64,000 nt of DNA from a virus. Lineage: Duplodnaviria > Caudoviricetes. The stretch covers positions 1 through 64,000 of the IMG/VR virus record IMGVR_UViG_3300037067_008087; one strand, 5' to 3'. Positions 7,893 through 47,200 of the stretch are shown here, in pieces (position 1 is the stretch's first letter; the number at the start of each line of letters is the position of its first letter). The notes beneath the pieces are model-generated. The model had not been told where the DNA came from, ran no database searches, and worked only from the letters and a program-made list of their open reading frames with translations. A program made the position numbers and the translations under genes.

Positions 7893-7982
7893 TAATCCAT
7901 GGTATTGTATGGAAAGAAACCACAGAGAGTATTAAGTACACTATAGAGCAGACGGCTAGAATGATTGAATAAATGTATTTCA

Positions 7983-20441: not shown

Positions 20442-20576
20442 GGAAGCCAAAATGAAATATAAGTATGCCCTTAAACATAGAGATGTTTACAAAATCCAAA
20501 GAGACGAAATACTAAACGCAATAATTACATCCCCCACTCCTAATTGGGGGAGCCTGATAATCAAAGTGACATACAT

Positions 20577-23006: not shown

Positions 23007-23010
23007 GAAT

Positions 23011-24179: not shown

Positions 24180-25261
24180 CGATACACGAACAAAAGGCTG
24201 AGACCATAATTAAGTACTCAAATAAGTACGGATTAGATACCATGATTGAGACCGGCACTTATTATGGAGACATGGTGGAGTCCCAACGAAACAATTTCAA
24301 AAAAATAATATCTATTGAACTTGGTGACGGGTTGGCAAAGAAAGCACAAGAACGGTTTGATGCTTATCCCCATATAAAGATACTTCAGGGCGACAGCGCT
24401 GAGGTTATTATGCAGCTATTACCAAGGGATCGTACATTGTTTTGGTTAGACGCCCATTGTTCCGGTAATGATACGGCGGGAAGTGATGAGGATAACCCCC
24501 TTATTCACGAATTGGAGGCGCTTGTAAAAGATAAAAACCATGTTATATTAATAGATGACATTCATGATAAAAGGCAGGACTTAGAGGACATAGTGGAGGG
24601 GATGATTGTCTCTTATGAACCGGGGATTATGGTTTTAGAACCCCGTGAAATAAGTAATGTAAATTTTTCTATTACCACAGCGTGTAATAGAAGTTGTAGA
24701 AACTGTTCCTATAACGCCCCGAATAAGAGCGTGAAACATCTTACAGAGCAAGAAATACGCCATGCTGCCCCTTATTTTAGTGGTTGTTCTATTACTATTA
24801 CGGGAGGAGAGCCGACAATACACCCTAAATTCCTTGAATTAGTGCCCAAGTTTGAAGAAATATTCGGACGCAAGGTGTCTATCGAGACTAATGGGTATAT
24901 GTTAAAAAAACATCCTGACATATTCAGGCACTTTAAGAATATCCACATTGCTAACTATATAAAAGGAGATTACTTTACCGCCAAAGAAGATAATACGGCG
25001 GTTATTAAGTGGTTTGTAAAGAATTACCCTGACATTAATGTATGTGTAGACGAGATGCGATCACACAGGGATAGAAATACTTGGGGCAAGAGGATTTGCC
25101 CTGCCGGGACTGCTATAACCATTGCGTATATGGGCGGGTTAGTATATCCATGCTGTATAGGAGATGGTCATATGGGCGCTATAGGTATAGGGCTGGATGG
25201 ATGGAGAGATAAAATACGTAATACGCCCCTTAATTGTCATAAATGCTTTTTCTCGCTATGA
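24176..25261 (+). CDS. Methyltransferase-like plus radical SAM fusion
   Basis: IETGTYYGD...FWLDAH N-domain; TTACNRSCRNC, TGGEPT, ETNG, C-terminal Cys cluster. Confidence 0.8.
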   Translation: MTIHEQKAETIIKYSNKYGLDTMIETGTYYGDMVESQRNNFKKIISIELGDGLAKKAQERFDAYPHIKILQGDSAEVIMQLLPRDRTLFWLDAHCSGNDTAGSDEDNPLIHELEALVKDKNHVILIDDIHDKRQDLEDIVEGMIVSYEPGIMVLEPREISNVNFSITTACNRSCRNCSYNAPNKSVKHLTEQEIRHAAPYFSGCSITITGGEPTIHPKFLELVPKFEEIFGRKVSIETNGYMLKKHPDIFRHFKNIHIANYIKGDYFTAKEDNTAVIKWFVKNYPDINVCVDEMRSHRDRNTWGKRICPAGTAITIAYMGGLVYPCCIGDGHMGAIGIGLDGWRDKIRNTPLNCHKCFFSL

Positions 25262-25893
25262 AAGTAATAAGTTATTGTTTGTGGGGTAATAACCCTAAGT
25301 ATATAGATGGGTTGTACCGCAATGTCTGTATTATAAAAGAGAAGCTCCCGGGATATAGGGTCTATTTATATGTAAATAAGAATTATTATATTGACATTGA
25401 TGGGTTTACGGTAATAAGAACCAATCATGACGGAAACTATCTAATGTTTGACAGATTCAGACCAGTCGGAGATATAACATATAGTAGAGATTTAGACTCC
25501 CCTATATTAGACAGAGAGATAGAGGCGATGAAAGAATTTGAGGCTTCTGATAAAGGCATCCATGTAATGAGAGATCACCCGTATCATCGCGCGCGTATTC
25601 TAGGAGGCACATTAGGGATAAAGAAGGGAGCCGTAAGGGGGATTAATAAACTAATAGATAATCATATTTATAAATACAATGATGAGTGGTTTAGCGACCA
25701 GATATTCCTAAATGACATAATTTATCCTATGGTAAAGGATAATATGCTTATACACTCATCTATTAACTTCTACACCGATGAAAAACCAACTCCCTTTCCA
25801 ACAGAGAGAGTGGGAGATGAGTTTGTGGGAATGATATTGCCGAGGGTTTATGAACATCATGCCGTATTAAGAAATGCTGAAAATATTATTTAA
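25255..25893 (+). CDS. GT-A-like glycosyltransferase
   Basis: KVISYCLWG, SRDLDS, MRDHPYH, ILGG, DQIFL; start set at MKVIS. Confidence 0.6.
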   Translation, partial: AMKVISYCLWGNNPKYIDGLYRNVCIIKEKLPGYRVYLYVNKNYYIDIDGFTVIRTNHDGNYLMFDRFRPVGDITYSRDLDSPILDREIEAMKEFEASDKGIHVMRDHPYHRARILGGTLGIKKGAVRGINKLIDNHIYKYNDEWFSDQIFLNDIIYPMVKDNMLIHSSINFYTDEKPTPFPTERVGDEFVGMILPRVYEHHAVLRNAENII

Positions 25894-28800
25894 TTTTCCA
25901 ACAAGAGAGAGGCCTGATAGGTTTAAGAAGAGTCTTGATTCAATCCTTAATAATTGCGAGGGCGATTTTAGGGTGATTGTTAAATTAGATAGAGATGACC
26001 CTACGATAAGCCGCTATTTAGCTCTAGTGGACGAATACCGTAATTATCCTATTATATGGAATATAGGAGATTCAAAAAATAAGGTTAATGCAATTAATAG
26101 AGATATATCTAATCTTGAATGGGATGTTGTTTTTTGTTGGGCTGATGATATATTTGCCATATACAAAGGCTTTGATAATATTATACGGGGTTCTTTTACA
26201 GACATAAACTCTTGGCCGTGCTTTTGGGATGGATACAGGAAGGATGATCTTATTACCATGTGCATTGTAAGTAGGGTTAATTACGATAGGTTCGGGTATG
26301 TATATTATCCGGGCTATGAATCCCTGTACTGCGACAACGAAATGACTGAAATAGCGAGGATTATGGGCGGGTTGAATGTTATACGCCATCCGCAAATAGT
26401 TAAGCATAATCACCCCGCGCTAAATACCAATGTGCGATTCGATGAACTAAACACTAAAAACGACAAAAGTTCTTCCGTTGACAAGAAGTTATTTGAAGAG
26501 CGTAAAAATAACAATTTTTACATAAACAATAACGATGAGTTGTTAGCCTTAAAATACCAGCAGGAGCCATTAGAGTACGAGGGTTTAATATACAAATATT
26601 TTAACCCGAAAAAGAAATTAACCATTTTCGAGGTAGGAGCCTGCCAATGTGAGGATACCCTGAAATTACAGAAGTTATTCCCTAATTCTGATATTCATGC
26701 GTTTGAGCCAATACCGGACAATTACAACAAAGGGCGCCAAAAGATAAGCGGCATCACTCTAAATAATATAGCTGTATCAGACCACAAGGGGGAAGATGAT
26801 ATGTATGTAAGCTCTGGGGCTCCCTGTGGCAGCGGAGAGTTTTATGGTAACAAAAGCAGTTCTTTATTAGCCCCATATAAACACCTTGAGATATTTGAGT
26901 GGTGTAAGTTCAATAAGAAGGTACGAGTTAAAGTAGATACTATCGCCAACTACATAACCAAGAAAAACATAAAGCACATTAATTTCATCCATATGGATGT
27001 TCAGGGGGCTGAGTTACAGGTACTAAAAGGATGCGGGGCGTTTATTTCTAATGTGGATATAGTGTTTTTAGAGGTGGCAAGAATAGAAATGTATAAGGAT
27101 CAAGCCTTATTGCCGGACATAAACGACTTTTTTATTTCTAATGGCTTTGAATTGATATATCAGAATGTTAGCGATGTTGCAGGTAATCAATTATGGGCGA
27201 GGATTAAATCGGATTTGCTATTTACTTCCATGCCAAAATATTGTATTAATCTTGCAAAGGAAGTTGACCGAAGAGTTGGCGTGGCTGGTGAATTTGAAAA
27301 GTTAGGGCTATCTATAAATTTCTATAACGCCATAGATGGCAAGAAGCTGGAGCCAAGTAGAACCATGACGGCGAATGAGATTGCATGCTCTAGGTCTCAT
27401 AGAAACATAATTAAAGAAGCAAAGAGGCAAGGCCTTGAGTATGTATATATATGCGAGGATGACATTAAGTTCTGTGATGATTTCTGGAAAAGAATAAGGC
27501 GCATAGAGTCTTGTGGGTTAGATTATGATATGTTATTTTTAGGAGGGCACTTTAGTGATAAAGAGGCTATGCCCATAGAATCATCCCCTACAATACATGA
27601 TAATATATATAGGGTATATAGATTAGCAGGGGCATATTCTTATATTGTTAAAAGTACCGCTTATGATAAAATACTTAATGCGCCAGAGAAATTTGCTATA
27701 GATGCTTTATATTGTTATTTTATTCAGAAACAAGTTAAAGCCTATGCGTTCATCCCATTCTTAACAACTTGTGCGCCTTGTTTCTCTAATATAACCGGGG
27801 TATATATGGAGTACCCCCATGTAAAATGGTATTATTCAAAAAAAATAGAAATGATTACTTATACGAAGTTAGGTAAAAACGGCAGGCTTGGGAACCAGTT
27901 GTTTCAAGTAGCCGCAGCTATTGCGATAGCTAAAGATAATAAAACAACGGCTAAATTGCCCGTTAACTGGCAATACCGTAATTATTTCAATGTGCCAGAC
28001 AAATATTTTGGAGATACGTCACCGGATTTATTGGTGAATGTATCAAATTATCATTATGACATAAGCAAACTGGAGAAGGTTGACTTTGAAAAATGCGTTG
28101 ACCTATTTGGGTATTTCCAATCAGAGAAGTATTTTAAAAATATTAAAAAAGATATCATAAAATGGTTCACGCCCAAGGTGGCTAGGTTAGATGAGTGGTC
28201 TGTTGGTATGCATATACGCAGAGGAGATTTTGTGGGTAATAAGGCTCATATAAACCTAAAGCCAGAATATTATATTAGCGCTATTGATAAGTATTTTAAT
28301 GACCCACGCTATAAGTTTTATATATGCACTGATGATCCAGACTATGCAAGATTCCATTTCAAGGGTGATCGGTTTATAATAGCAGATAGAACGGAACTTG
28401 AGGACTTTGATGTTATGGTATCATGCCAAAATCACATCTTAGCCAATAGCTCATTTAGTTGGTGGGGGGCTTATTTAGCACAAAGCAAGAGGGTTATTCG
28501 CCCCGCTAAATCTTTTAGGGGTGTGCTTGATCCTCTTAGTGAGAAAGACCTGTGGCAGCCTGAGTGGATAACCCATGAAGATCACCGGATAGACCTATCT
28601 GATGTTACTTTTATCACTACATTTAAGTACGATCACCCAGATAGGATAGAGAACCTTGATATATTTATGGATCAGCTTGGGGCTTATAAAACTAACATCC
28701 TTATAGGGGAGATGGGAGGGCAAATTGTAAAAGAAAAGTATCCTAAAAACTACGTAGACTTAAATTTTATAAAAGTCTTCCATCATACCCGCAGTAATAA

Positions 28801-30154
28801 CATATTGGCAGCATTGGCTAAAACAGAAATAGTTATCAATATAGACTGTGATATTGTTGTCCCCCCCAATCAGATATATGAGGCGGTTAAGATGCTGAGA
28901 AACGGCTATGAGTTCGTTTTCCCGTATGAGGGGATATTTGTGAGGGTGGGGAATGGGTCTAATGACCGGAACCAAGATTATATAAAATTAATTAAAGAGG
29001 CTGGAGACATAGGGATATTAAAGGGAATAGAGTTTTTTGGCATGTCTTCCGACAATATAGAGAGCCATGGTGGTGTGTTTGGATTTAGGAAGGGTGTTTA
29101 CTTTAAGTACGGAGGGGATAACGAAAATTATGTTTCCTACGCACCAGAGGACACTGATAGAGCCTATAGATTCAGAACGCTGAGTAAATACGGGAGGGTA
29201 AGCGGTTCCCTTTATCACTTAAATCATTTTTGTGGTGTGGACAGCACTAATATGAATCCATATTTTAACGCATCAGTCAAGGAGTGGGGAAAGGTAAGGG
29301 CTATGAATAAAAAACAGCTCCTTGCTTACATTAAAACATGGGAGTGGGATTATAGTAAAGTAAAAACACTTAAGGATATAGATAAGGGGTCATGCATAAA
29401 AACAACTAAAAATAACATCACCGATGTTACATTTATCATACCTGTTAAATACGATCATCCAGACAGAAAAGAAAACCTTAATTTATGTATTAGTTTTTTA
29501 CGATATTGGTTTGATACTAATATAATAATAGGGGAACAGGGTGGCGATAAGTTCTCTTACGTAAAGGATATCGGGTGTGAATATGTGAAGTTTGACAGCA
29601 TGCATGAATTTCACCGCACACAGATGATAAATAAACTTACATCTATAGCTAAAACACCAATAGTTTTTAATTGGGATGCCGATGTTGTGGCTCCCCCGAA
29701 TCAGGTACTGGACGCGGTAAATTATTTAAGAAACGGGGGCGAGTTTGCTTATCCTTACAACGGAACATTTATTAAAATAGATAAGGACAAAGCGTCACAG
29801 TTTGGTATATCACTGGATATATCAATGCTTTTTTCGGCAGAACACCAAAAAATAGTGTCAGATTCTGATGGTGGGGCTATAGGATATAAAAAGGACGCCT
29901 TTTTTAGAATAGGGGGAGAAAATGAACATTACATGTCCCATAGCCCTGAAGACAGGGATAGAAAATACAGAATAGAGACCTTGGCTGAATACACAAGGAT
30001 ACCGGGGCCGTTGTTTCATATAAACCACTATAAAAGCAAAGACTCAATTCATGATAATCAATATAAGGTTATTAATAAAAGCGAATGGAGGAAGGTGGGA
30101 CAAATGAGTAAGGCAGAATTAACTAAATATATAAAAACATGGAAATGGATTTAA
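25874..30154 (+). CDS. Six-domain glycan-modifying protein: GT-A, FkbM MTase, GT25, GT11, GT-A, GT-A
   Basis: WADD; FEVGAC/AFEP/HMDVQGAE; CINL..DRR/ACSRSH/EDD; GRLGNQ/GYFQSEKYF/HIRRGD/NSSFSWWGA; two KYDHPDR...D.D...PED repeats. Confidence 0.88.
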   Translation: MLKILFNFPTRERPDRFKKSLDSILNNCEGDFRVIVKLDRDDPTISRYLALVDEYRNYPIIWNIGDSKNKVNAINRDISNLEWDVVFCWADDIFAIYKGFDNIIRGSFTDINSWPCFWDGYRKDDLITMCIVSRVNYDRFGYVYYPGYESLYCDNEMTEIARIMGGLNVIRHPQIVKHNHPALNTNVRFDELNTKNDKSSSVDKKLFEERKNNNFYINNNDELLALKYQQEPLEYEGLIYKYFNPKKKLTIFEVGACQCEDTLKLQKLFPNSDIHAFEPIPDNYNKGRQKISGITLNNIAVSDHKGEDDMYVSSGAPCGSGEFYGNKSSSLLAPYKHLEIFEWCKFNKKVRVKVDTIANYITKKNIKHINFIHMDVQGAELQVLKGCGAFISNVDIVFLEVARIEMYKDQALLPDINDFFISNGFELIYQNVSDVAGNQLWARIKSDLLFTSMPKYCINLAKEVDRRVGVAGEFEKLGLSINFYNAIDGKKLEPSRTMTANEIACSRSHRNIIKEAKRQGLEYVYICEDDIKFCDDFWKRIRRIESCGLDYDMLFLGGHFSDKEAMPIESSPTIHDNIYRVYRLAGAYSYIVKSTAYDKILNAPEKFAIDALYCYFIQKQVKAYAFIPFLTTCAPCFSNITGVYMEYPHVKWYYSKKIEMITYTKLGKNGRLGNQLFQVAAAIAIAKDNKTTAKLPVNWQYRNYFNVPDKYFGDTSPDLLVNVSNYHYDISKLEKVDFEKCVDLFGYFQSEKYFKNIKKDIIKWFTPKVARLDEWSVGMHIRRGDFVGNKAHINLKPEYYISAIDKYFNDPRYKFYICTDDPDYARFHFKGDRFIIADRTELEDFDVMVSCQNHILANSSFSWWGAYLAQSKRVIRPAKSFRGVLDPLSEKDLWQPEWITHEDHRIDLSDVTFITTFKYDHPDRIENLDIFMDQLGAYKTNILIGEMGGQIVKEKYPKNYVDLNFIKVFHHTRSNNILAALAKTEIVINIDCDIVVPPNQIYEAVKMLRNGYEFVFPYEGIFVRVGNGSNDRNQDYIKLIKEAGDIGILKGIEFFGMSSDNIESHGGVFGFRKGVYFKYGGDNENYVSYAPEDTDRAYRFRTLSKYGRVSGSLYHLNHFCGVDSTNMNPYFNASVKEWGKVRAMNKKQLLAYIKTWEWDYSKVKTLKDIDKGSCIKTTKNNITDVTFIIPVKYDHPDRKENLNLCISFLRYWFDTNIIIGEQGGDKFSYVKDIGCEYVKFDSMHEFHRTQMINKLTSIAKTPIVFNWDADVVAPPNQVLDAVNYLRNGGEFAYPYNGTFIKIDKDKASQFGISLDISMLFSAEHQKIVSDSDGGAIGYKKDAFFRIGGENEHYMSHSPEDRDRKYRIETLAEYTRIPGPLFHINHYKSKDSIHDNQYKVINKSEWRKVGQMSKAELTKYIKTWKWI

Positions 30155-34302: not shown

Positions 34303-37300
34303 TTATTTATACTGATTTACTAAGTCATATAACTGTTTATATGTTACCACCCTTATTTCATCCCCGGCAACCTGTTTAGTTCTAATATAGTCCAATATGT
34401 TTTCAAGTATTGTGTAATATTCATATTCCTCCAAATCCCACGTTCCCGGATGGCCATATATACCGAGTGTCGTCCTCTTGGTTGTTATAATTGCATCTAT
34501 ATGACCTTCAATAGTTGTTTGATTAGGAATATCAAATCCTTGTGCATAAAACAAATCCCACCTATTAATAGGTATTTTTAGCCTGTTGTTTGTAACTAAT
34601 GTTGCACTTACTGAACGTCCAATATTAAAATAATCTAATACCGCAGAAAAAGTTACATCATCAGCAGCTCCTCCGGGATATGCTTTAGATACAATCCTGT
34701 AATCAATAGCTGTATCGTAATAATTTACTGCCTTTTCATAATAGGTAGCTAATTGTTCAGTAGTATAATTTGCTGATGTTTCATGAAATTCTATTCTTTC
34801 TGGCGGATATTCTCCATTTATTGATAGAGTATGTAATCCTATTTCGTTATCGTTTTTAATTAATGATTTGATCTGTGTGTTTGTAAGATAATGACCGTAA
34901 TTAATAAAAAATGTTTGCGGCACACTATGAGGCACAAATACAGTGTCTAATAACGGAATTTCCGTTGGCGTTGTATGATCCCAACTAAATACCACAAGCG
35001 GAAAATCAACATTTTGAATTAACACATAATCGGTATTGTATTGAGCATGATCGCTGTCGCTTACATATACATCATCTTTGAAAATTATTAAATCCTTGAT
35101 ATATCCTGTCGTTCTATAATTATAGCCTCCATCATAATAATTGGAATCCATCTTATTATAGTATAGATGTGGCCTCCAATTATCAAAATCCGTGAATTTT
35201 AACGGATCACCAACGAAAATCGTATCTAAAACCTCTCTGACAGAATTTGCTTCACTTAGTGATTCATCGCCTGTTGCAGTGAATATTTGATTTTCCGTAT
35301 ATTCGCCAAAATATCCTTCCGTTGTGTTTTCGATAAAATAATTTTTATCAGCCACACAATATCCGCTTAATAATAAAGTACTTAATTTAGGCTTTTCAAG
35401 GGTGAAAGGGAAGTCAATATCACAAGCATATCTTAACCATGTTGATCCATCCTGAACATTCCTTAATGGCTTGCCTAAAACATCGTTAGTCCCCGCCAAT
35501 AATCCCGGTATTATATAATATTCCTCTACCAATACCGAATTAATCTCAAATGATGATCTTGCACTCCCATTAAAATATAAATATAACGTGGTTTCTCCGG
35601 CGGTGAAATTTGCAACATGGCTTCTGTTTACCAAATCCCACGGAGCTACTGTAATTAATCCACCTCCTGCATTATATCCTGCATATAGAGCAGTACCTAT
35701 AATTGTTAATCTTGTATATATTCCTGACGTGATCGTATTGTTTCTTTGCAAATACGGGCGTGTCGTTGCGGATGCTGTTGGTTGTTTAGTTACCTCTGCC
35801 GTTAAGTTATTATTTGAAAAGGATAGAGTACCAGTGCCACTCGTCCCCCAAACTGCCGACCATCCACTTGTAGATGTTGAAAAATCTGATTGGTATTTAA
35901 CTTTTGTATCATTATAACCATATTGAGCCAGATAGAAATAATTATTCTGAGTTGCAACATTCGCCTCTGCCAAACCACTACACAAAGCATGATGACTATT
36001 ACCAGACACGTCATAAGAAGTCGTTGGTATATTAGTTTCAATTATTGGCTCACAGAATGGAATTATTGCCCATATAACATCTTCCCTCCAAATACTAATA
36101 CCATATACAGTATCCCCTTCTGCTATCCTTAATGTCCCGTCAACCGGAATAGTCGGCAAATCACTGCCATCAACAACAGATATAGAATCAGTAGTTAAAA
36201 CTCCTGTAATTGTATAATCTAAATTACCAGTTATTGATGTTCTTGCTGAAGCGTTCTTTAAAGCCGCATTATTCTCGTAAAATGTGGCGTCTATCCATTC
36301 ATTTGTTGTAAAATTAAAAGTATCTGCAACAAAAACATATATATTAACAGCAACCGTAATAATATTTGAACTCGCACTCACTCCCGCTGAATTTACCGCC
36401 CTCACCCTGTAATAGTAAGTTGTGTTCTCGGTTAGTCCGGTAACTGATTGAGAAGTCCCGCTTACCGTCAGATTGTTATACCCAGTTACAAAGGTTGCAA
36501 AGTTACTTGCCGTTGATACGTCCAGCCTGTAACTCGATGCCCCCGATACTGCAGTCCAATTAGCAGTAAAACTTGTGTCGGTTACGGAGGTGGCTGCCGT
36601 TGCTACGGGGGCAGACATATACACCATAAACGAATTACCACCCTTCATAAACTTACCCTCTGACTTCATAAACTGTCCACCGCTACCCATGAATCCACCA
36701 GTAGGTGTTTCCGGTGCTGCTGCGACTGTTACCGTTACCGTCCACTCCTGAGTTGATTCGTCCAGTGCTGTGACTGTATAAACAACCAGAGAAGTAAAGT
36801 CTGTTGCTGTTCCGCTTGTAGGTGAAATTGTCGCTCCTTCACTTACTGTTATTGTAGGCTGTAAAGCTGTTACTGATGTGCCGTATTCGACTTCTATACT
36901 TACAGTATGAGCAGTTGAGTTTATTGTGGCTGATCCGGTTTGGGCTGAGAGGGTGAAGGTTAGGATGTTAGTGGCGGTGCTGTCGGCTGAGCCGTATTCG
37001 GAATAACCGAGGTCAGGGGCAAGCCCGTTGTAAGGCAATCCCACGTCAACACCAGCGTCTATTAAAACAGAACCTTCTTTTAACGTTAGGAACGTTATGT
37101 CTGGAAGTGAACCATCCGCTTTTCTGGAGGCTGTTAGTTCCGCAAACATAGAAGCTGAATCTAATATATTAAAGTTATCATTCAGCCCCGAATATGCCCA
37201 ACTAAGCGTATCATTGTATTCCCAATAAGGTATTTCACCGTTCGTAAATAACCATGTGTTATGATCTCCTCTCGCATAGCTGGGTGGGCCATCACACGCT

Positions 37301-38349
37301 GATAAATACAGTTCCCAATACCAAAGCCCCCATGAATTATAAACTACATTATTTTGATACAACACTTCGGCATCATGTATATCACAGTCAAAACCAGTCC
37401 CCGGATCAGTCGTAAAACCTTGTTTGCACTTGTAAGCAATGTTGTTATAGTAGTGCATTATTGGCCCATACGGGTAATTTAGATTTTGTTCTACAAAACC
37501 AGACGCTTTATTAAATGCCGCAATATTATTATATGCTTTTCTCGTTTCTAATGATTGTTTATATCCATGTGAATATTTAAAACCAACTCCGGCACCGTAT
37601 TCAAGTAGCCCATTACTAAAAGCCCAATTATTATATACATGAGATTGACAAGCCGGGCTAACTTCAAATCCATCATCTGAATTATTCCATGATCTACACC
37701 CGGAAACTATAAATAAATTAGTAGAATCAGGCTCTGCCGTCCCAGAACCAAAAGTAAATCCATCAGCCCTATTGCCGGGCTCGGGATCATTTTCACTTAT
37801 ATTATTATAGCTATCGCAGTTTGTAACATACAAAGTGTCGAAACCTATTATCCATGTCCCATACCCCTCAATATCATGTGATACCATCTGGTCAAACCAA
37901 ATAACCCCTACCTGATATAATGATATACCTGAAATCCATTGACCCAACACAATCTGTTCGCAATTCCGAACTGTTAATCCCCTGAATTTAATATAGGTAA
38001 CGTTTTTGACATCTAATGCAACCTTAGTTTCTTCTGAAGTATAATTACTACAATCTAATATTGGGGTTTCATTCGGATAATTAAAAAAACAGATAGGATC
38101 AGTGTACGTGCCGTTATTACCATGACTTGCCGAAGGGTTTAATATAGGTTCTGACGTAGGTTGCCAAATCCCATTACGGAAATATACAGTGTCCCCCGCT
38201 TCGGCTGTGTCAAATCCTTTCTGCCATGTTGCAAAAGGCTGTGCTATCGTTCCGGGATTACTATCACTTCCCCCTGAAGGAGCAACATAATAAGTGGCTG
38301 CATTTAACACACTATTACTAAACAATAGTATAATTATTATTTTTTTCAT
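34303..38349 (-). CDS. Signal-peptide-bearing multidomain protein: PL9-like beta-helix, Ig-like, FN3, C-terminal NodB-like polysaccharide deacetylase
   Basis: YYVAP..GSDSNPGT..QPFAT; LIDAGVDVG; TYYYRVRAVN; FSWD..TFFIN..EIGLHT..AYPGG; ATGA-coupled start MKKIII at 38349. Confidence 0.8.
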   Translation of the reverse strand: MKKIIIILLFSNSVLNAATYYVAPSGGSDSNPGTIAQPFATWQKGFDTAEAGDTVYFRNGIWQPTSEPILNPSASHGNNGTYTDPICFFNYPNETPILDCSNYTSEETKVALDVKNVTYIKFRGLTVRNCEQIVLGQWISGISLYQVGVIWFDQMVSHDIEGYGTWIIGFDTLYVTNCDSYNNISENDPEPGNRADGFTFGSGTAEPDSTNLFIVSGCRSWNNSDDGFEVSPACQSHVYNNWAFSNGLLEYGAGVGFKYSHGYKQSLETRKAYNNIAAFNKASGFVEQNLNYPYGPIMHYYNNIAYKCKQGFTTDPGTGFDCDIHDAEVLYQNNVVYNSWGLWYWELYLSACDGPPSYARGDHNTWLFTNGEIPYWEYNDTLSWAYSGLNDNFNILDSASMFAELTASRKADGSLPDITFLTLKEGSVLIDAGVDVGLPYNGLAPDLGYSEYGSADSTATNILTFTLSAQTGSATINSTAHTVSIEVEYGTSVTALQPTITVSEGATISPTSGTATDFTSLVVYTVTALDESTQEWTVTVTVAAAPETPTGGFMGSGGQFMKSEGKFMKGGNSFMVYMSAPVATAATSVTDTSFTANWTAVSGASSYRLDVSTASNFATFVTGYNNLTVSGTSQSVTGLTENTTYYYRVRAVNSAGVSASSNIITVAVNIYVFVADTFNFTTNEWIDATFYENNAALKNASARTSITGNLDYTITGVLTTDSISVVDGSDLPTIPVDGTLRIAEGDTVYGISIWREDVIWAIIPFCEPIIETNIPTTSYDVSGNSHHALCSGLAEANVATQNNYFYLAQYGYNDTKVKYQSDFSTSTSGWSAVWGTSGTGTLSFSNNNLTAEVTKQPTASATTRPYLQRNNTITSGIYTRLTIIGTALYAGYNAGGGLITVAPWDLVNRSHVANFTAGETTLYLYFNGSARSSFEINSVLVEEYYIIPGLLAGTNDVLGKPLRNVQDGSTWLRYACDIDFPFTLEKPKLSTLLLSGYCVADKNYFIENTTEGYFGEYTENQIFTATGDESLSEANSVREVLDTIFVGDPLKFTDFDNWRPHLYYNKMDSNYYDGGYNYRTTGYIKDLIIFKDDVYVSDSDHAQYNTDYVLIQNVDFPLVVFSWDHTTPTEIPLLDTVFVPHSVPQTFFINYGHYLTNTQIKSLIKNDNEIGLHTLSINGEYPPERIEFHETSANYTTEQLATYYEKAVNYYDTAIDYRIVSKAYPGGAADDVTFSAVLDYFNIGRSVSATLVTNNRLKIPINRWDLFYAQGFDIPNQTTIEGHIDAIITTKRTTLGIYGHPGTWDLEEYEYYTILENILDYIRTKQVAGDEIRVVTYKQLYDLVNQYK

Positions 38350-39113
38350 AGATACTTTTCTTCTAACCAATCATATATTGTAGATTGTGTAGTCCCGTCA
38401 TCAACAACACTTCTGATAATAACTGCTTTTACCTCTATATTTGAATTATACGAGCCACCGCCATTACTCCCAAGATAAAAACCAGCCATATCATTACTCC
38501 CAGCATTTCCCGTTACGGCGGTATTTTTATTAATCTGCAAAGAGGAGCTTTCGCCATTTAAAATTACACGAACAATGCCGTATGTATCTAAAGCTAAATC
38601 ACCATCATCTTGCAATACAGTCCCAGCATATAATCTTAAATATCCTGAATTATCAGTTGATCCTTGTTGTAAAGAACCGTATTCGCTGGCATTATTACCA
38701 TCAAACACAAAATCCCACCGAGACCAAGTAACTTGTTTAAAGACAATATAAATGGTTATTGGTTGATTTAAAGTATATACCCCACCAAGAAAAGCGCCTT
38801 CTCCATTAAACAATATTCCATTTGCGTTTAAAACAGGACGTTCAACCCAAACTACAGGTACAAGGTCTAAGTCGTTACCAGATTCAAAATAGTCTCTCCA
38901 TTCTTCAACATAAGTAGGATGGTCAACGGTCATGGTAAACGTACTTGATTCATCGTACAAATACATCGCTACCGTATTATTATCAAGTTCCTCTGGATAC
39001 TCCCCTCCTTCTTCCCCAGCACTCTGCACCCCCCTATAAAACGGATACCTCCCTATCTGCCCGTTAACTGAAACAAGCAGAAATAATAAGGGTATTATTA
39101 TTAACTTTTTCAT
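38346..39113 (-). CDS. Signal-peptide-bearing LamG/concanavalin-like fibre protein
   Basis: MKKLIIIPLLFLLVSVNG-Q; TIYIVFKQ, LQINKN, FYLG. Confidence 0.65.
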   Translation of the reverse strand: MKKLIIIPLLFLLVSVNGQIGRYPFYRGVQSAGEEGGEYPEELDNNTVAMYLYDESSTFTMTVDHPTYVEEWRDYFESGNDLDLVPVVWVERPVLNANGILFNGEGAFLGGVYTLNQPITIYIVFKQVTWSRWDFVFDGNNASEYGSLQQGSTDNSGYLRLYAGTVLQDDGDLALDTYGIVRVILNGESSSLQINKNTAVTGNAGSNDMAGFYLGSNGGGSYNSNIEVKAVIIRSVVDDGTTQSTIYDWLEEKYL

Positions 39114-39116
39114 GGC

Positions 39117-40403
39117 TTAGTAAGTTGACGTTTTGTAGCCTGAAAGTTGCAAGATTAACAATGACGGTTTATTCCCGGCACTTGTGGCACTTATCGTACA
39201 CCATACAAACACCCCCGGCGGGATAACTGCATTTGCAAATGAAGTATCTACATCTCCGGTAGTCGTGCTTGTTATTGTCAATGCTTCTGTGTTTAAGTTA
39301 GTCGCTGAACCTGATTTAAAGGTTGCGTGCCAGCTTACCTGTACCCCCACTGTTTCAGTCCCGCTACCTTCTGCCAATACCCCTCGTAAAGACGTTACGT
39401 GTATCGTATCGCTTCCCGCATTGAAGAATGAACCCGCTATTGCATTATCATTAAAAGCTGCTGTGTCTGCCGCCAAGCCACCTCCCAGACCGAAAGTGAA
39501 TATCGGTATTGTGTCGGCTAACATAACAACATCCTCCGTTGCTGGCTTTCCTGCAAGTCCGGTTGTAAAATCATAGCCCGTCACATAACTCCCTGCTGCT
39601 GTGCCGGAACTGTCTGCTAAAGCCACACCGTCAACGGCATTGTTAAGTAAAGCTGCATTAGAATCGGCAATCATACCTGCTGCCTGTGCTATAACAAAAG
39701 CCGTAGATGCTGCTTGAGTTGTGTTCGTCCCTGTTACTGCTGTCGGAACAGTAGGAGTGCCTGTTAATGCCGGGCTTGAAGATAATACAGTCGAACCAGT
39801 ACCAGTTGACGTGGTTACTCCCGTTCCCCCATTTGCCACTGCTAAAGTTCCCCCCTGTGTTATAGTACCAGATGTCGTTATTGGCCCTCCCGAAGTCGTT
39901 AATCCTGTTGTACCTCCTGAGACGGCTACACTGGTAACAGAACCAGTCCCTCCCCCTATCTCAATGGCATTTATCCTTGCATCCAAAGAAAGAGTGTCAT
40001 CACCAGTAAGAAACCCAGTTAAAGCAGATAACTTAGCATAATTAAGCAGGCTATCTGCAATTTCACTCTGTACATCCCCAATAGTTATAAATTCACTTAT
40101 GGCAGAACTCTTTACATAGTTAAGTAAACTATCCGCTATCTCCCCCTGAGCATCACTAAGGGTTATTAAATCAATAATATCATCATGTGTAGCTATTTTT
40201 GTAAGGGTATCTCCCCATTCGACATAGCCAGTTAGGTCAAGTTCCCCAGCCACAATATCATTTGCTACACTATCTACATAGTGTATTGTTGCAATCTTGT
40301 TTATAGTGTCTACGGTTGCTGTGGCATCAATCTTTTTCGCTTGCCCAAATGCCGATAAGCTTGTTATTACTAAAAGCGATATGATTGCAATTTTTGTTTT
40401 CAT
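39117..40403 (-). CDS. Signal-peptide-bearing tail-fibre-like protein
   Basis: MKTKIAIISLLVITSLSAFG-Q; fibre motifs GTLAVANGGTG and SPALTGTPTVPT..TNTTQAASTAFV. Confidence 0.75.
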   Translation of the reverse strand: MKTKIAIISLLVITSLSAFGQAKKIDATATVDTINKIATIHYVDSVANDIVAGELDLTGYVEWGDTLTKIATHDDIIDLITLSDAQGEIADSLLNYVKSSAISEFITIGDVQSEIADSLLNYAKLSALTGFLTGDDTLSLDARINAIEIGGGTGSVTSVAVSGGTTGLTTSGGPITTSGTITQGGTLAVANGGTGVTTSTGTGSTVLSSSPALTGTPTVPTAVTGTNTTQAASTAFVIAQAAGMIADSNAALLNNAVDGVALADSSGTAAGSYVTGYDFTTGLAGKPATEDVVMLADTIPIFTFGLGGGLAADTAAFNDNAIAGSFFNAGSDTIHVTSLRGVLAEGSGTETVGVQVSWHATFKSGSATNLNTEALTITSTTTGDVDTSFANAVIPPGVFVWCTISATSAGNKPSLLILQLSGYKTSTY

Positions 40404-40419
40404 GTTTTTATGTGTTGTT

Positions 40420-40776
40420 TTAATTCTTCAACCATTGTATGAACATTATAATATATGGTATAATGGTTATGCCCAATCCTATTATCCATTTGGTGTCCCT
40501 ACTAGACTCTTTCTTTTTTGCATAAGCCCTTTCCTTTTCTGTCGTTGTAACTTCTATTTCTTTCTTGAAATCTGAAATGGATGATATCTTTTCTGACAGG
40601 GCGCTCATTGTATGGCATAGCTCTTCAGACCTATCTTCGTTTATCTTCAGCCGCACATTTAATTCAGTAACAGCAGAAATAACTCCCTTTTGGCCATTAC
40701 CCTCCAGCACTTTTTTATGCCTGTCGAGGGTTTCCTTCATTGCCCCTATTTCTTGTTCAAACTTGCAAACTTCCAT
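40420..40776 (-). CDS. Coiled-coil plus C-terminal TM protein (holin/XhlA-like)
   Basis: WIIGLGITIIPYIIMFIQWL at the C-terminus. Confidence 0.5.
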   Translation of the reverse strand: MEVCKFEQEIGAMKETLDRHKKVLEGNGQKGVISAVTELNVRLKINEDRSEELCHTMSALSEKISSISDFKKEIEVTTTEKERAYAKKKESSRDTKWIIGLGITIIPYIIMFIQWLKN

Positions 40777-41208
40777 TTACCACCATATTTCAAGGTTACC
40801 ATCTGTTACGCTATTCCACACTATTGTTATAGCTAGAATATCCCCTCGCCACTGTATGTCTGTTAACACTATCGCATTAGTGGTATATGCCACTGTAGCA
40901 TAGTTAGCGGTATATGTTAATGTTGCATCCGCAGTATTTAAAGTGTATGGATTCCCGGATACATCAATCTTATAATTAGCATGATGATCATCCCTGCCAT
41001 ACCCGATAGTGGCGACAGCATCATTAGCATTAAAACTAGTGAAGTCCATTATCACAAGGCTCACATCTTGCTTGCTACCCATGTTTATAAAAAATGTGGT
41101 AGTATCTTGTGAATAATAATCTGCGGCATCATAAGTCCTTCTTAGGCGTTGGGCACTGATATCTACCGCAAGTAGCGACAACAGTAGGAAAAATATTGTT
41201 TTTTTCAT
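40777..41208 (-). CDS. Signal-peptide-bearing beta-rich protein
   Basis: MKKTIFFLLLSLLAVDISA-Q. Confidence 0.65.
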   Translation of the reverse strand: MKKTIFFLLLSLLAVDISAQRLRRTYDAADYYSQDTTTFFINMGSKQDVSLVIMDFTSFNANDAVATIGYGRDDHHANYKIDVSGNPYTLNTADATLTYTANYATVAYTTNAIVLTDIQWRGDILAITIVWNSVTDGNLEIWW

Positions 41209-41251: not shown

Positions 41252-44200
41252 TTATTCTACACGATCCCCTAGGATGATCTGCCCCTTATCATTAAGCTTT
41301 ACTTTTCTATTGGAAAATATAGCCTCTCTGATATCCGCGTCAAACCTTGCGTTTTTAAGCGCCGCGCTCACATCCGCTGGCTTATTGCCCAGCCTTATTG
41401 CCTCATAATAATCTTCACGTATTGAATTTATGACATTATTCAAAGACTCTTCTGCCTCGAATTTTGCGTTAGCTAACTGATCCTTTTCCATGTTATTGGG
41501 GGCTATATATCTATTATACCCCCTTAATACTTCAGAATAAATATCACGGGCACTCTCTATTCTTTTTTTATAATTCGGGAATATATAACTCTGCATCGAC
41601 CTCACTGGGTCAATTTTACGGGACTGGGCTCCCTTACCCATAGCCAATAGTGCGTGGCCCCAATCACCCCCTTCTTTTCTTGTTTCATTAACTTTCATAA
41701 GGTCAGTGATTGTGGCAGGGAGATACAGATTTTCAGCTAAATACCAAGTTATATCCTTAAATTTATTAGACCAAGTATCTTCTTCGTTATAAATAGCGTA
41801 GCCATTATCATTACTATTCTTAATTAAATCAACATAAGCCTTAAATGTCATCTCATATCCCACAAACTTCCCAACAAATTCTTTAGCGGCATTTATCAGG
41901 TCTTCTGTCTGAAGAGTGCCAAGGGCAGCTTTTCGGCCTACCATTAATAGCGGTGTGGTTATAGAGCCATAATAATCCATGTAAGAATTATTTACATAGG
42001 TAGCGGTTCCATTTCCATGATCCTCGGTGATTGTTATTATATCATTCTTCCAGTAATCAGGGAGATATCGTTTCCACCCCTCTACATCTTCCGCGCTTTG
42101 CCCGTTTTTTCTATTCCTGTATGCAGATACAGCACTCAATGCAACAATAGACGCTAAATGACCAGACAGCCTCTGCATGCCTATATTTCTAGTATATGGG
42201 TCTTTTATTTCTTTCCACCCTAATTCTGTCCCCTTAAGAAAATTAACCATTGTAGAATATGGGAACGATATAAACGTTTGGCTCCATGGTGTTTTCCTTG
42301 CTAACTGTATAATTCTTGGCAGTTCTGAATAATAAGTAGATGTATCATGTAGAATATCAGACGCTTTTGTTTTTGCCATTTCTATAGCATCCACATCATT
42401 CATCCCCATCTTCTTATATACATCCCCGTATCTTAGATATTCAGACACATATCTATAAACTTTCCATACATCATCGGCCCAAGCGTAGGTTTTTAATGCT
42501 GGCATTACTGTTTTCCTTTTAATTTTTTCACCCAAGGTTTCATCACCAACACGGAAGATGCTGTTTTTACTGGACATATCTTCAATGTTGCGCATTATAT
42601 CGCCTACATTAGTGCTATCACCAATAATACCTCGACTTATCAACTCCCTTGTAAACCCATTTCTATCTTTAAGTTGGTTAGCTATCTCTTTCGCCGTTGA
42701 TATTGTATTAAAGTTCCCATTAGCTACCACATTCATTAGGTTAGATTTAAAATTCCTAACAGTTCCTTTCACCGATAAGGCTGTTTTAGAAATCTTTGCG
42801 GCAGACATAGACCCCAGCCATAACTTCATGGCAAGGCTAGACTCACTCTTGGGCTGCAATAAATCATTGAAGTTTTTGGCTATTTCTGGGGTTGTATAAT
42901 ATTCTGATAAAGCCTTCGTCCCGGGTTTGCCAGAAAACTGGTAATTAAGTTTAATTTGTGCAATATGATTTTTACTAGCACTCTGGTGTTCGGATATTAA
43001 ACCTTGAGCTAATAAATCATCTTTTATCGCCTCATACATCTTACCCTTAGCAAGTAGTTCTGTCTGCCTGAATAGCGTTGTGGCTATATTATAGAATGGG
43101 TCTGTATTTTCACCAAGTAGTTCTCTAACTTCTGGATTATCGGTCAAAAACTCAGACCTTCTTTTTAATGACCTAACATCAGCGTCAAGCATGCGAGGGC
43201 CAGATCGTAAGACAAAATCAGCAATATCCCCAACCTCAACCATCTGTTTCATCATACCCGTTGCTATATCTGCATGCTCAGCTTGCTCTTTGATCCTTTT
43301 ATTATATACTTCTTCCGGTATACCAAAATTCCCCTTGTTGGCCTTCTCTGCTGAAACAACAAGGTCTATAAAGTCGCTGGCGGTAATTCTGCCATCATTT
43401 ACAGCGTCTAATAATCTACCGTCTTTATAGGCCTCTACAATAGCATCCTGCTTATTTTTCTTCATCCATTCTTCCTTTGGATTTTTAAGCAAATCTGATG
43501 ATTGATTAAATATACTCTTATAAGGATTATATTCCATAAATATCGGCAGGGCCGCATCCTTAACTGCCGCCGGAATATTCTCCCAAGTATATCTCCTATC
43601 TGTATGAACCTTATATGTTCTTGTCATATAGAAACCCTGTCTTGCGGTAATGGCTTCAGCAAGGGGGGTGTTTATCATCTGTAATTGAGCAATACGCCTT
43701 GAGTGGCTATCCATCAACGCTCTTGCCTGTAATAAGTCCTCTTTAAACGAATCAGATAATAATGTTTCAAACCTATCTATCATTTCCCCAATAACACGGG
43801 TATCTCCAATATCAGCAAATTGCTTCATTGCGCTATTTATCATTTTCTTATCCTGATCAGAAAGCCTACCCTCTAATTCTTTTGTCATGTTTTTAAGTAG
43901 GTTCACGGTATCGTATTTAACTGCCTCAATAGCGTTTTTTGTGCTCCTTATTATTCTAGCGGAGCTTTTAGGAATCCCCCCATATGATTTCCACCAATAT
44001 TTTAATCCTTCCGATATGTTTTTTTCTTTAAACTTTTCTTTACCAGTCCTAAATGCATTAAATGCATTATCCCAAAAACCAGCACCAGCGGGTTTAGACC
44101 TCTGCTTATCCTCTTCTTCTTTAAACCTATCTTTCATCCACTCCGCAGCCGTCTTATTTCTTCCCTCTGGAGTTTTCTGTGCTTCTTTCCATTGTCGGTA

Positions 44201-47200
44201 TTGTTCTCCACTCATACCCGGAGGTAAGGCAGTGCCTCCTTTGGGCGATGGAGGTATAACAGTTTTCTCTGCTGTCTTCTTCTCTACTGCCTCTACATCA
44301 ATACCAGTAGCCTTCCTTATAAGATAAGCCTTTGCAGCCTTTTCCCCTTCAGCTCCCTTACCAAACGGCTTACCTGCGCTTATTGTCTTAGGGTCGCTTG
44401 GATTGACCGCATACCAAGTACCGCGACTTTCAACAACCCTATAAGTTTTATCTCCGGCTTCAATATAATGTTCAACACCAACTACATCACCCTTAGCGTT
44501 CATACGTGGGCGTGTACTAAGTTTAATATCCCTATCGACTACTTTTCTTTTCTCTTGAACATTTCCACTTGTCTCAGTCTTTTTTGAGCTTGTTGTTTTG
44601 TCAGGTTTGGTTTGCTTAAGTTTTTCCCCGACTCGCTTTTCACTTGGTATCCCTGTTTTGTTTTTGTTATCATTTACTTTAAGTTTAGTAAGGTCAGTAA
44701 TACCCCCTTGTTTTATTTTCTCTGTCGGCTTAATTTTATTCTTAGGGGCTTCAGTCTTCACCCCTTGTTTTATCTTGGGTTTTTCAGCCACGCCAAGATC
44801 GGTTAAATCAGTATAGGTTTGTTTAACCTTTTCTACTGGTTTAATTTTGTTCTTAGGTTTTTCTGTCCCCTTATTCTTTTCACGGCTAATATCAGTTAAA
44901 TCAGTATAGCCCTTGGCTTTTTTAATCGGCTCAGCTTTAGGTGTTTTTAATTTAGCCGATACAGTATGTGTTCGGGCTCCGCCATAATCCATGGCTTCAT
45001 ATTTCCATGAGTATTCAGGGTTGGTAGTCTGTAGTTTCCTGCGGGCTTGCTCTGCCGCACCGCGCCCTTCAAAATATTCATCTACTACATACTCACCAGC
45101 TTTATTCCCCTCGATTAATTCATACTGACGTTCCCCGTCACTAACCTTAGGATTTGTTGATGTTTCCTTTGGTTCTTCCTTAATTGGTTCAGCAGCCTGT
45201 TTGATCTTCTCTTTTGGCTTCTCGATTGCTTTAGGCTTTGGCTCCGCTTTCTTTTCAATAGGTTTAATTTTATTTTTAGGGGGTTCTTTTTTAGTAACCT
45301 CTTTCTTTTCTGGCATAACTGGCTTAGGTTTTTCTGCCACGGGCTCAGTTTTAGCCTTAACCTCAGCAACCCCATCTCTGACTAAGTCTCTTTTACTTAA
45401 TTCTAGAGAAGAAGATGTATCTTTATATTGAGCAATAACACCCTCATTTGACCTAACTACTAAATCTCCATTAGGATTTACCTCTTGCACAACACCACTA
45501 AAACCACGTTCTTTATCCTTTACTTTGTCACCAACAGCAAAATCAGCCCGTTCTGTTTTAGGGGTGGGCTCAGCTTTTGGGGGCTCAACCTTAGGGGTCT
45601 CTTCTTTAGGTTTAGCGGCCTCCACTTTGGGAGTTGCTTCTTTGGCAGCTTCCGCCTTAGGAGCCTTTGCTTCCCTTTTTATTGGTCGCGCTACTTTAGC
45701 TTCAGGTTGCACCTCTACTGCGGCACTGACTTCTTCTTTAACTGGCTCTGGTTTCGCTTTAAAATTAGCAGATGGTTTCATCCTATAAGAGCCATCTTCC
45801 ATTTTCTCGGCTTCTTCAGACCTAACCAAAGAATCCCACATATTACGAGCCTTAGAACTTATCTTGTCCGGGCGATCAGATTTTATCACATCCCCTTGCT
45901 GCCCAGCCTCTTCATTAAGTGATCTATATACCTGCTTACCAAAGCCCCTGCCCTCTTCATTTACATCTACCCTTTTAACTTCCCATCCTTCGGGTTTTTC
46001 TTCTATGGTTATTTCACCAAACTCTTCGCCGTCTTTTGTTATCTTACGAGTGAACGTATTCTCGCCCGCCTTAAGTATTTTCTTAATGGAGTTAGTTGAT
46101 GGGGTTTTCTCTGATACTCCTATAACGGGCTTAGCCGTGACATCACTTCTCTTTTTAAACATATCAGACTTGGCTTGTTCTTGCCATAAATTTTCAAGAT
46201 CGCTTATTTCTTTTTCTAAAAACTTTTGCGCTGTCTCTATTTCCTCAATGGTATTTTTTCGGGTCTGTGATAATTTAGAACTTTCAAGCCTCTTGTATTC
46301 TTCATATAAATTATCACTAGCCTTCCTTATTCTGTCATTAATAACAGGGAGTTCCCCGTCTATATCATTTATAGTCCTGCGTGTTTCTTCGTTTATAAAT
46401 AACTCGGGTTCCTGAAATTCTTTTCTATTGTCTAATATCCTAACATCTACATCATCTTGGATTTTCTTATTGTTCTCTATTATCTTATCTATCTTATCAA
46501 GCTGTGTTTTTTTAGTGGCGTCTGGAAGATCAGATTCCTGTATAGATTTTCTGTATAGGTCAGGATTAACTATAACGTCTTTAGATATAGCATTGATATC
46601 TATTATATTGTCTATTAAGGTTTTTGACGAAAGAAGTTCATTCTTCCTTTGTATGTTAGTTTCTTGGGCAGCTTGATCACCTAACTCTATTGATCTCTCT
46701 CTTAGTTTAGATGGCTCAATATCCATTGACTGCACTAAATCAATAGCCTTAGGAGATGCGCTCATGAAGTTTTTGGCGGCTTTATTATAGGCGTTTCTTA
46801 TAACCGCCCTCTTTACATCTGTCCCTATTAACCTAGGTACACCGGGTAAGCCAAGTCCGATACCAACACCAAGCGATTCCGCTGCTGTGCCCCAATCAAC
46901 TTCTCCATTTTGGGTATATTGATTATAAACATCATACCCCATAAACCCAATACCATTGGCAAGTGATGCCGCAGAACCAGATAAAACAGCTGATTTTGTT
47001 GCTTGCCCAACTAAATTGCCTAACATGCCAGAACCAACACCCAGTGAATGTAACACACTACCAGCAGTAAACCCTTCTACTGCACCAACTAAACCAGATT
47101 TTAATCTATCTTTAGTGTTGTCTCCGGTTTTAGTGCCGCGATATAAACCCTTCATCCCCTCAAGCGTGGCTAATTTGGGAATATTAACAGCCTTACCAAC

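Follow-up and report, generated by a model that had tools for sequence, protein, structure and literature searches.

The 64,000-nucleotide window analysed here, which starts at position 1 of an 82,396-bp IMG/VR virus record (IMGVR_UViG_3300037067_008087; CheckV completeness around 70%), contains a block of late genes in tail-fibre position, at 34,303-41,208 on the minus strand, whose products appear to be made for export. Together with two further genes of the same kind that lie beyond the window, the block probably encodes the host-recognition and glycan-cutting equipment of the phage (a trimeric fibre, a LamG lectin-like protein, a small jelly-roll protein and a large enzyme), with all six proteins predicted to be Sec pre-proteins that carry leaders of the Bacteroidota type. 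Export of the leader-bearing proteins is well supported by their sequences, and this host-recognition equipment would very probably mature in the periplasm. Below we set out the evidence for these leaders and for an excess of host O-glycosylation motifs in the fibres, weigh other explanations, and propose tentatively how such proteins might reach the phage particle.

Predicted Sec leaders on the fibre and enzyme genes

Leaders and their cleavage sites were called with a simple n-h-c rule of our own combined with inspection. An earlier note, made from the sequence, had described signal peptides on four genes (143, 428, 255 and about 1350 amino acids), three of them cleavable before Gln, and direct reading of the open reading frames (ORFs) bore this out. 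All four lie on the minus strand at the positions listed in Table 1, and their N-termini read as Sec/signal peptidase I leaders, in which MKK or MKT precedes a hydrophobic stretch of 10-13 uncharged residues and small residues occupy positions -3 and -1. With a slash for the predicted cut, they are MKKTIFFLLLSLLAVDISA/Q in the 143-residue protein (P0001), MKTKIAIISLLVITSLSAFG/Q in the 428-residue fibre (P0002), MKKLIIIPLLFLLVSVNG/Q in the 255-residue LamG-like protein (P0003) and MKKIIIILLFSNSVLNA/ATYYVAP in the large enzyme (P0004). The last is read from an ATG at 38,349 that overlaps the P0003 stop codon (ATGA); a TTG at 38,370 is probably not the start. When the same rule was applied to the 105 ORFs of the 82-kb genome, a high score with Gln at +1 was obtained in six only, namely P0001, P0002, P0003, the two proteins encoded outside the window (P0006 and P0007) and one small early ORF. 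The six leader proteins of the late region (P0001-P0004, P0006 and P0007) score between 2.9 and 4.1, and five of them have Gln at +1, the exception being P0004 with Ala. Leaders are thus present on 6/6 fibre- or enzyme-type late genes versus 0/17 other late genes.

The identity of the +1 residue is informative. Gln occupies this position in a mean of 71% of signal peptidase I substrates in Bacteroidetes and mostly in fewer than 20% in neighbouring phyla; this Q-rule is specific to signal peptidase I substrates of Bacteroidetes, and the Gln is cyclised at the periplasmic face (PMC5837995). Selection for Gln at +1 has a known meaning only after cleavage by signal peptidase I. We read the leaders as probably cleaved, and it is well supported that these proteins look like real Sec/signal peptidase I substrates of a Bacteroidota host. 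Two other destinations were considered and rejected. Lipoprotein processing with surface display does not suit P0001-P0004, which have no Cys at +1, although P0007 reads LFAMC/Q and might also be cut before the Cys. Likewise, none of the six leader proteins ends in a type IX secretion system (T9SS) sorting domain (PF18962/TIGR04183) by Pfam or NCBIfam, and they were not taken for T9SS cargo.

Among relatives the shape of the leader is kept even though its sequence diverges. In the P0001 family (22 representatives at no more than 50% identity) every full-length member has a leader, and just three positions do not vary in an alignment with a mean identity of 30%, namely Met1, the +1 Gln and one Gly. 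Proteins that share the tip of P0002 (50-82% identity) range from 253 to 707 residues and have quite different N-terminal parts; a leader is present in 31/34, with Gln at +1 in 29 of these, and the remaining three are truncated by the end of a contig. Close relatives of P0003 keep G/QIGRYP. Across 11 related loci, leaders were called on 39 of 191 ORFs, 32 of them with Gln at +1. The P0002 tip itself is virus-specific, with one match among 185,579 species genomes, on a 5.9-kb contig of a metagenome-assembled genome. For the beta-helix of P0004 the nearest bacterial relatives, at 45-56% identity, are secreted proteins about 640 residues long that end in a T9SS sorting domain (PF18962) and are encoded on contigs as long as 1 Mb. 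Of 120 such relatives, 102 pass the leader rule, and most of the others are visibly truncated or have leaders that the rule missed. Given that the phage copies are without the sorting domain, the module looks captured from host-type secreted enzymes, leader included. A tblastn search with P0004 against phages found matches in uncultured records only, in alignments that start inside the leader.

Enrichment of the host O-glycosylation motif

We counted the sequon D-(S/T)-(A/I/L/V/M/T) in each protein and derived the expected number from 2000 residue shuffles that kept the composition of that protein. P0002 has 9 sequons versus 3.6 expected (p = 0.0065), six of which fall at residues 32-136 in its helical N-terminal part; P0007 has 10 versus 3.7 (p = 0.0015) and P0004 has 12 versus 6.0 (p = 0.016). 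These three proteins carry the enrichment (observed/expected ratio, O/E, 2.0-2.7, and 2.5-2.7 in the two fibres), and P0001 has 1 sequon versus 1.1 expected. The counts given in the earlier note (9 in the 428-residue protein, 6 of them N-terminal; 12 in the large protein; 3 in the 493-residue capsid candidate) are all reproduced, and the tail-fibre motifs it saw in the 428-residue protein agree with PHROG. That note had also proposed a comparison with cytoplasmic virion proteins and across homologues. In this genome, the six mature leader proteins together contain 40 sequons versus 20.4 expected (O/E 1.96; 1.09 per 100 residues), whereas the 17 other late proteins contain 23 versus 26.1 (O/E 0.88); the density across all proteins without a leader is 0.31 per 100 residues. 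Internal repeats inflate such counts, and the test across relatives is therefore the stronger one. For this we took the variable parts between leader and tip, one per cluster from 17 clusters, and found 146 sequons versus 43.7 expected (O/E 3.3; 2.5 per 100 residues), with every cluster above its own expectation. In 88 fibre relatives without a leader, by contrast, there are 111 versus 207 expected (O/E 0.54). In the P0001 family D35 and T37 hardly vary, and 21/23 members have the strict sequon at 30% mean identity.

In Bacteroidota the motif is enriched in non-cytoplasmic proteins and is present in about half of them; occupancy of the sites is nearly complete, motifs introduced by engineering also serve as sites, and one species glycosylates the proteins of another (PMC12871550). 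Given this near-default use, glycosylation of accessible sites is the default expectation for any of these proteins that reach the periplasm, and we consider glycosylation of the fibres probable. The proposal in the earlier note that the proteins are both exported and glycosylated therefore draws support from the leaders, the Q-rule and the sequon excess of the fibres. The enrichment is uneven, with no sequon in P0003 and one, though conserved, in P0001.

Fold of the fibre and of the small jelly-roll protein

Three PHROG tail-fibre families match P0002 over residues 202-259 (E 3.8e-9 to 2.6e-6). In its Gly-rich shaft, segments share 70-88% identity with leader-less fibres from other phages. 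The last 130 residues form a jelly roll in the AlphaFold2 (AF2) model (pLDDT about 90). A fold search with this tip gave generic matches that include phage fibre tips and carbohydrate-binding modules (best Z 8.7, root-mean-square deviation (rmsd) 3.3 Å over 114 aligned residues). A homotrimer model of residues 230-428 reached an ipSAE of 0.88, compared with 0.00 for the best of three controls, and three runs agreed in at least 75% of contacts, with a partner pLDDT of 71. On calibration, the mark used by this tool was reached by 20/30 solved homomers and 1/23 monomers. Modelling thus supports a trimeric tip for P0002. The AF2 model of P0001 is a beta-sandwich jelly roll (pLDDT 84) whose best fold match is likewise generic (Z 8.4, rmsd 2.7 Å, 96 aligned). 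Kinship of these two folds with PBSX XepA and YomS of a Bacillus prophage lytic cassette was entertained and not accepted, the matches being generic (Z no higher than 8.7); XepA features in a paper on secretion without a signal peptide. Searches of P0002 and P0007 against PDB sequences returned nothing useful. P0004 is predicted to be a large enzyme with a pectate-lyase-like beta-helix, Ig-like domains and a deacetylase, its enzyme calls being domain matches above curated cut-offs. Over its last 140 residues, P0007 shares 42% identity with the C-terminal end of the corresponding protein in a related phage (L003, below). This stretch ends in a coiled coil and by its sequence looks like a fibre C-terminal chaperone module, and no Pfam or PHROG family matched it.

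Position of the block and spread of a leader cassette

Late genes run on the minus strand in the order fibre gene (P0007) and GH5 gene (P0006), both outside the window; small and large terminase; a TnpB-type transposase; portal; the 493-residue capsid candidate; a 1260-residue protein; a 2259-residue protein; the fibre block; and two small membrane-protein genes. The large terminase (phrog_6681, E 2.3e-36) and portal (phrog_6547, E 4.2e-26) are recognised, and the 1260-residue protein matches phrog_14478 and, below threshold, crAss_MUZ_C (20 bits versus a cut-off of 27). The phage is called crAss-like from its gene layout only. Neither the capsid candidate nor the 2259-residue protein matched a family in Pfam or PHROG; tblastn of the capsid candidate and of the P0002 tip against phages gave no match, a search of the capsid candidate against PDB sequences returned nothing useful, and the DNA of the block has no near match among 50,697 phage records.

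The same set of genes recurs elsewhere. In L003, a related phage of 77 kb, the giant protein and a lysis cassette of amidase/spanin type flank seven consecutive leader genes, which include counterparts of P0001, P0007, P0006, P0002, P0003 and the P0004 beta-helix. A cassette of three genes, made up of a leader fibre with the conserved tip, a leader LamG protein and a leader beta-helix enzyme (...SA/TTYYVA), is present in crAss-like contigs, where it follows the giant protein, and in 16-43 kb contigs that carry tail genes of siphovirus type, where it lies directly after tape-measure/Dit/Tal-type genes and before holin-like genes. Among the latter, PHROG places it after tape-measure and Tal-type genes in L022 and after the tape-measure gene in L025; for L023 and L028 the placement is by gene order alone. 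L022 also encodes, between its Tal-type gene and its leader fibre (7329-7922, plus strand), a predicted lipoprotein of 197 residues (...LVFS/C). Further relatives of P0003 occur in L004-L006 and L009-L015, mostly small phage contigs, in which they have no leader, lie near tail genes and are often followed by a short conserved gene (MIAIF...).

A tentative scheme and its alternatives

To our knowledge, all parts of tailed phages have been taken to fold and assemble in the cytoplasm. We suggest, as a serious possibility that falls somewhat short of probable, that this phage is instead assembled in two compartments. Heads and tails would be built in the cytoplasm, while the whole recognition set would be exported by Sec, capped with pyroglutamate (pyroGlu), coated with host O-glycan, and docked in the seconds between holin firing and rupture of the outer membrane. 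In what we hold to be the probable part of this scheme, SecYEG would carry the leader proteins unfolded into the periplasm of a Bacteroidota host, where signal peptidase I would remove the leader and the glutaminyl cyclase of the host would cyclise the new N-terminal Gln to pyroGlu. Host O-glycan would be added at exposed motifs, mainly in the N-terminal parts of the P0002 and P0007 fibres and at D35-T-T of P0001, and the proteins would fold and trimerise in this compartment. Holin, endolysin and spanin would then merge the two compartments, upon which the proteins could dock on the cytoplasm-built particles or act as free enzymes and lectins. For docking at lysis we put the chances at about even. 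The earlier note had offered a choice between addition to virions and display on the host surface. Display is disfavoured by the lack of a lipobox in the four block proteins and of a T9SS domain, and joining of the virion is suggested by analogy with the Cellulophaga phage phi18:3, discussed below.

Several points limit or weigh against maturation in the periplasm of a Bacteroidota host. The host is inferred from the Q-rule, from the T9SS-bearing beta-helix relatives (some of them named Bacteroidales, Rikenellaceae or Ignavibacteriae) and from the weak crAss muzzle match, and a Bacteroides promoter pattern is not significantly enriched in the genome (6 versus 2.65 expected). Leaders were called with our own n-h-c rule rather than with SignalP. 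No virion-docking domain was recognised in the leader proteins. Fibres of the cultured Bacteroides phages crAss001 (first 50 kb) and B40-8 have no leader (0/15 ORFs of at least 240 residues in each). Relatives of P0003 at 39-48% identity in other phages also start without one, which indicates that the LamG fold needs no export and that the leader is a trait of this lineage. With respect to the sequons, P0003 has 0 versus 0.8 expected; 6 of the 10 in P0007 fall in internal repeats (three in tandem), and P0002 has 2 of its 9 in a repeat; and two of the three conserved sequons of the P0002 tip (297-299 and 332-334) map to the interface of the trimer model and are probably structural rather than glycosylation sites. 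Finally, the leader proteins of phi18:3 (gp085-gp087) are sequon-poor, with 1 each versus about 3 expected, so that export and sequon load are separable traits.

The sequon counts just listed, namely those in repeats and at the tip interface, the empty P0003 and the single sequons of gp085-gp087, also favour an explanation in which the excess is a by-product of fibre repeats and structural D-T/S motifs, and export serves Ca2+- or disulfide-dependent folding or protection by pyroGlu. We think this unlikely. The excess recurs in all 17 of the unrelated variable parts, each of which exceeds its expected count, leader-less fibres that share the shaft motif are depleted rather than enriched, the P0001-family sequon is among the few nearly invariant positions, and in the host system accessible motifs are glycosylated by default (PMC12871550). 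A cytoplasmic origin of the glycan, added by the phage's own glycosyltransferase cluster with the host's periplasmic system irrelevant, would find its enzymes in the 9.6-kb cluster with GT2, GT11, GT25 and methyltransferase domains, all without leaders, and has a precedent in mycobacteriophages with capsids glycosylated by phage genes (referred to in PMC11256854). It is nonetheless very unlikely, as it leaves the leaders and the Q-rule unexplained and the enriched motif is exactly the periplasmic sequon of the host. Even less probable, in our view, is that the N-termini are uncleaved membrane anchors or hydrophobic helices which, for example, tether the fibres at the inner membrane until assembly. 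An n-h-c rule cannot tell for sure whether an N-terminus is cleaved or stays on as a signal anchor, but the build is canonical (basic n-region, hydrophobic core of 10-13 residues, small residues at both -3 and -1), the nearly universal Gln at +1 has a known meaning only after cleavage, and bacterial T9SS cargo of the beta-helix family, which has to be cleaved, starts with the same leaders.

A different question is where exported proteins would go. They may never join the particle and instead work as free periplasmic or released enzymes and lectins that strip or block the capsule or exopolysaccharide of the infected cell for release, stop progeny from sticking to debris, or exclude superinfection; the block would then functionally be part of the lysis module. 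In every locus it adjoins lysis genes as much as tail genes, the GH5, PL9-like and CE4 modules belong to families of secreted bacterial enzymes, the failure to find a docking domain fits, and in the siphovirus-like relatives the large Tal-type protein could by itself bind the receptor. We nevertheless regard this as rather unlikely, given that P0002 and P0007 have fibre architecture, with shaft motifs common to ordinary tail fibres and a predicted trimeric tip, and that the crAss-like genome here has no other fibre gene. The leader proteins found at the same position in phi18:3 were detected in virion preparations by tandem mass spectrometry (MS/MS), and the mosaic pattern, in which parts are exchanged while the tip is conserved, is one typically seen in host-range determinants.

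Neighbouring genes

The features of the block and its surroundings are collected in Table 1. P0005, which has no leader and lies between two leader genes, may be holin-like, membrane-docking or a membrane partner of the exported set. The two genes 3' of the block form a putative lysis/exit module, and their arrangement is similar in L003 and in crAss001 gp27-gp30. The only recognisable endolysin-type gene is an Amidase_3 gene (22290-23006, plus strand; E 6.7e-15) located within the glycosyltransferase cluster and well away from the putative holin and spanin genes. In the same cluster, which the earlier note thought might supply or remodel the glycan, the GT11 domain was considered as a counterpart of the fucosyltransferase of host O-glycosylation loci and rejected, since that family groups as GT2 (PMC8698959). 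The transposase between the large terminase and portal genes (genome 64675-65865, minus strand) is of the TnpB/IS200-605 type (phrog_506, E 1.3e-124), and a 396-residue ORF in the lysis region of L003 (16686-17876) is taken from its sequence for one of the same kind. The small early ORF at 7539-7892 (minus strand), read from an internal ATG as about 90 residues, has the leader MKTNLFILLLVCSQAYG/Q, the sole Q-rule leader outside the fibre blocks; its product may be an exported early protein, for example one for superinfection exclusion.

Table 1. Genes and predicted domains of the fibre block and its surroundings (window coordinates unless marked; a slash stands for the predicted cleavage site).
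Feature	Coordinates	Strand	Details
P0001, 143 residues, small jelly-roll protein	40777..41208	-	leader residues 1-19 (41152-41208), cut ISA/Q; one conserved sequon, D35-T-T
P0005, 118 residues	40420..40776	-	no leader; coiled coil and C-terminal membrane helix; weak PHROG 'hemolysin' match, phrog_1193, E 1.3e-5
P0002, 428-residue fibre	39117..40403	-	leader residues 1-20 (40344-40403), cut AFG/Q; tip residues 297-428 (39120-39515)
P0003, 255-residue LamG/ConA-like protein	38346..39113	-	leader residues 1-18 (39060-39113), cut VNG/Q; no sequon; phrog_21809, E 1.6e-10
P0004, ~1348 residues from ATG at 38349	34303..38349	-	leader 38299-38349, cut LNA/A; 12 sequons
P0004 domain 1, Pel9A/PelN-like beta-helix	~37381-38301	-	PF22842, 66.3 bits (cut-off 25.2); NCBIfam PelN, E 2.9e-34
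P0004 domain 2, DUF5018	36721-36984	-	
P0004 domain 3, FN3	36352-36612	-	PF00041, 39.2 bits (cut-off 25)
P0004 last domain, polysaccharide (CE4) deacetylase	34642-35001	-	follows an unassigned middle part; PF01522, 25.6 bits (cut-off 23.1)
Two genes 3' of the block, 113 and 229 residues	33175..34208	-	second with N-terminal membrane anchor; weak Rz-like spanin match, phrog_739, E 5.9e-4
2259-residue late protein	41252..48031	-	no leader; upstream of the block in the same orientation, 43-nt gap; same order in L003
Glycan-enzyme cluster, 9.6 kb	20544..30154	+	GT2, GT11, GT25, FkbM methyltransferases, radical SAM (Pfam); no leaders
P0006, 1143 residues			outside the window, upstream of the terminase genes; LamG, GH5 (PF00150, 119.3 bits, cut-off 23.5), CUB; leader cut VLG/Q
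P0007, coiled-coil fibre	genome 72656-74203	-	outside the window, upstream of the terminase genes; internal start MKRYIILSILV..., cut AMC/Q

Implications

If assembly in two compartments is correct, the fibres would wear a host 'self' glycan, which might protect them from Bacteroidota proteases. Were it to hold for many phages of Bacteroidota, a late assembly step tied to lysis would have gone unrecognised, and Sec, signal peptidase I, glutaminyl cyclase and the O-glycosylation system of the host would constitute a dependency of the phage and a possible route to resistance. Fibres and depolymerases produced as recombinant proteins in the E. coli cytoplasm would then be without their natural processing. 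A Q-rule leader on fibre genes also offers a simple sequence marker for assigning uncultured phages to Bacteroidota hosts. Finally, phi18:3 is in culture, with leader-bearing virion proteins and MS/MS data on record, which makes the question testable now.

Comparison with known systems

Among phages, coat proteins, the receptor-binding protein included, that are made with a Sec signal peptide and matured outside the cytoplasm are familiar from the filamentous phage Ff (g3p and g8p), which assembles at the envelope and is extruded through it without lysis. The phage described here is, in contrast, tailed and of lytic type, with capsid and tail built in the cytoplasm. A closer parallel to its gene layout is found in crAss001 (PhicrAss001), in which gp21-gp26, its proven tail fibres and tailspikes, form a block of fibre-, lectin- and depolymerase-type genes directly before the lysis genes, with a polygalacturonase-like beta-helix and lectin domains. 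These proteins differ from ours in having no leaders and 0-0.73 sequons per 100 residues, and the block follows the portal gene, whereas the block here follows the giant late protein and its second part precedes the terminase.

The cultured phage of a Bacteroidota host that most resembles this one in the feature at issue is phi18:3 (Pachyviridae). Its gp085, gp086 and gp087 are large late proteins of three consecutive genes, which precede the lysis genes and, like P0007 and P0006 here, are found upstream of the terminase, and they have Sec-type leaders with Gln at +1 (FGYS/Q, VSA/Q and LNA/Q, respectively). The general layout is also similar, with giant proteins of 1612 and 1935 residues. BLASTP at E 0.01 detects no sequence similarity between gp085-gp087 and the six leader proteins of our phage. 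In the record (L033, 2892-8584) the three are annotated as structural or tail proteins of the virion, 'based on experimental MS/MS proteomics analysis'. This gives indirect backing, by analogy, to the presence of leader proteins in the virion here, bearing in mind that such preparations can carry contaminants.

The combination of tail fibres, Sec-exported phage proteins and host O-glycoproteins is described nowhere in the literature that we searched. That search, with limited full-text access, found no paper on tailed-phage fibre or depolymerase genes with such leaders, or on phage proteins as substrates of Bacteroidota O-glycosylation, and the word 'phage' occurs 0 times in PMC12871550. Each component does, however, have a counterpart. 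Host substrates of the Q-rule and of O-glycosylation have the same leader, the same Gln at +1 and the same motif enrichment, and differ in that the known substrates are all host proteins (PMC12871550, PMC5837995, PMC10653852). Prophages of Porphyromonas gingivalis encode Q-rule proteins and are adapted to the secretion system of their host (PMC10367356); the five genes concerned have no assigned function and are held there to change the outer membrane of the host. They are not fibre, lectin or depolymerase genes in tail-fibre position, and that paper does not discuss sequons. Finally, the mosaic adhesive trimer (MAT) fibres of Bdellovibrio bacteriovorus are phage-tail-fibre-like trimers with signal peptides that fold outside the cytoplasm, mosaic and with swapped tips (PMC10769870). 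They are bacterial proteins displayed by the predator cell, share a beta-rich domain right after the signal peptide that the proteins here do not have, and belong to a different phylum without the Q-rule or the sequon, but they show that trimeric fibres of the phage type can mature after export by Sec (PMC10769870).

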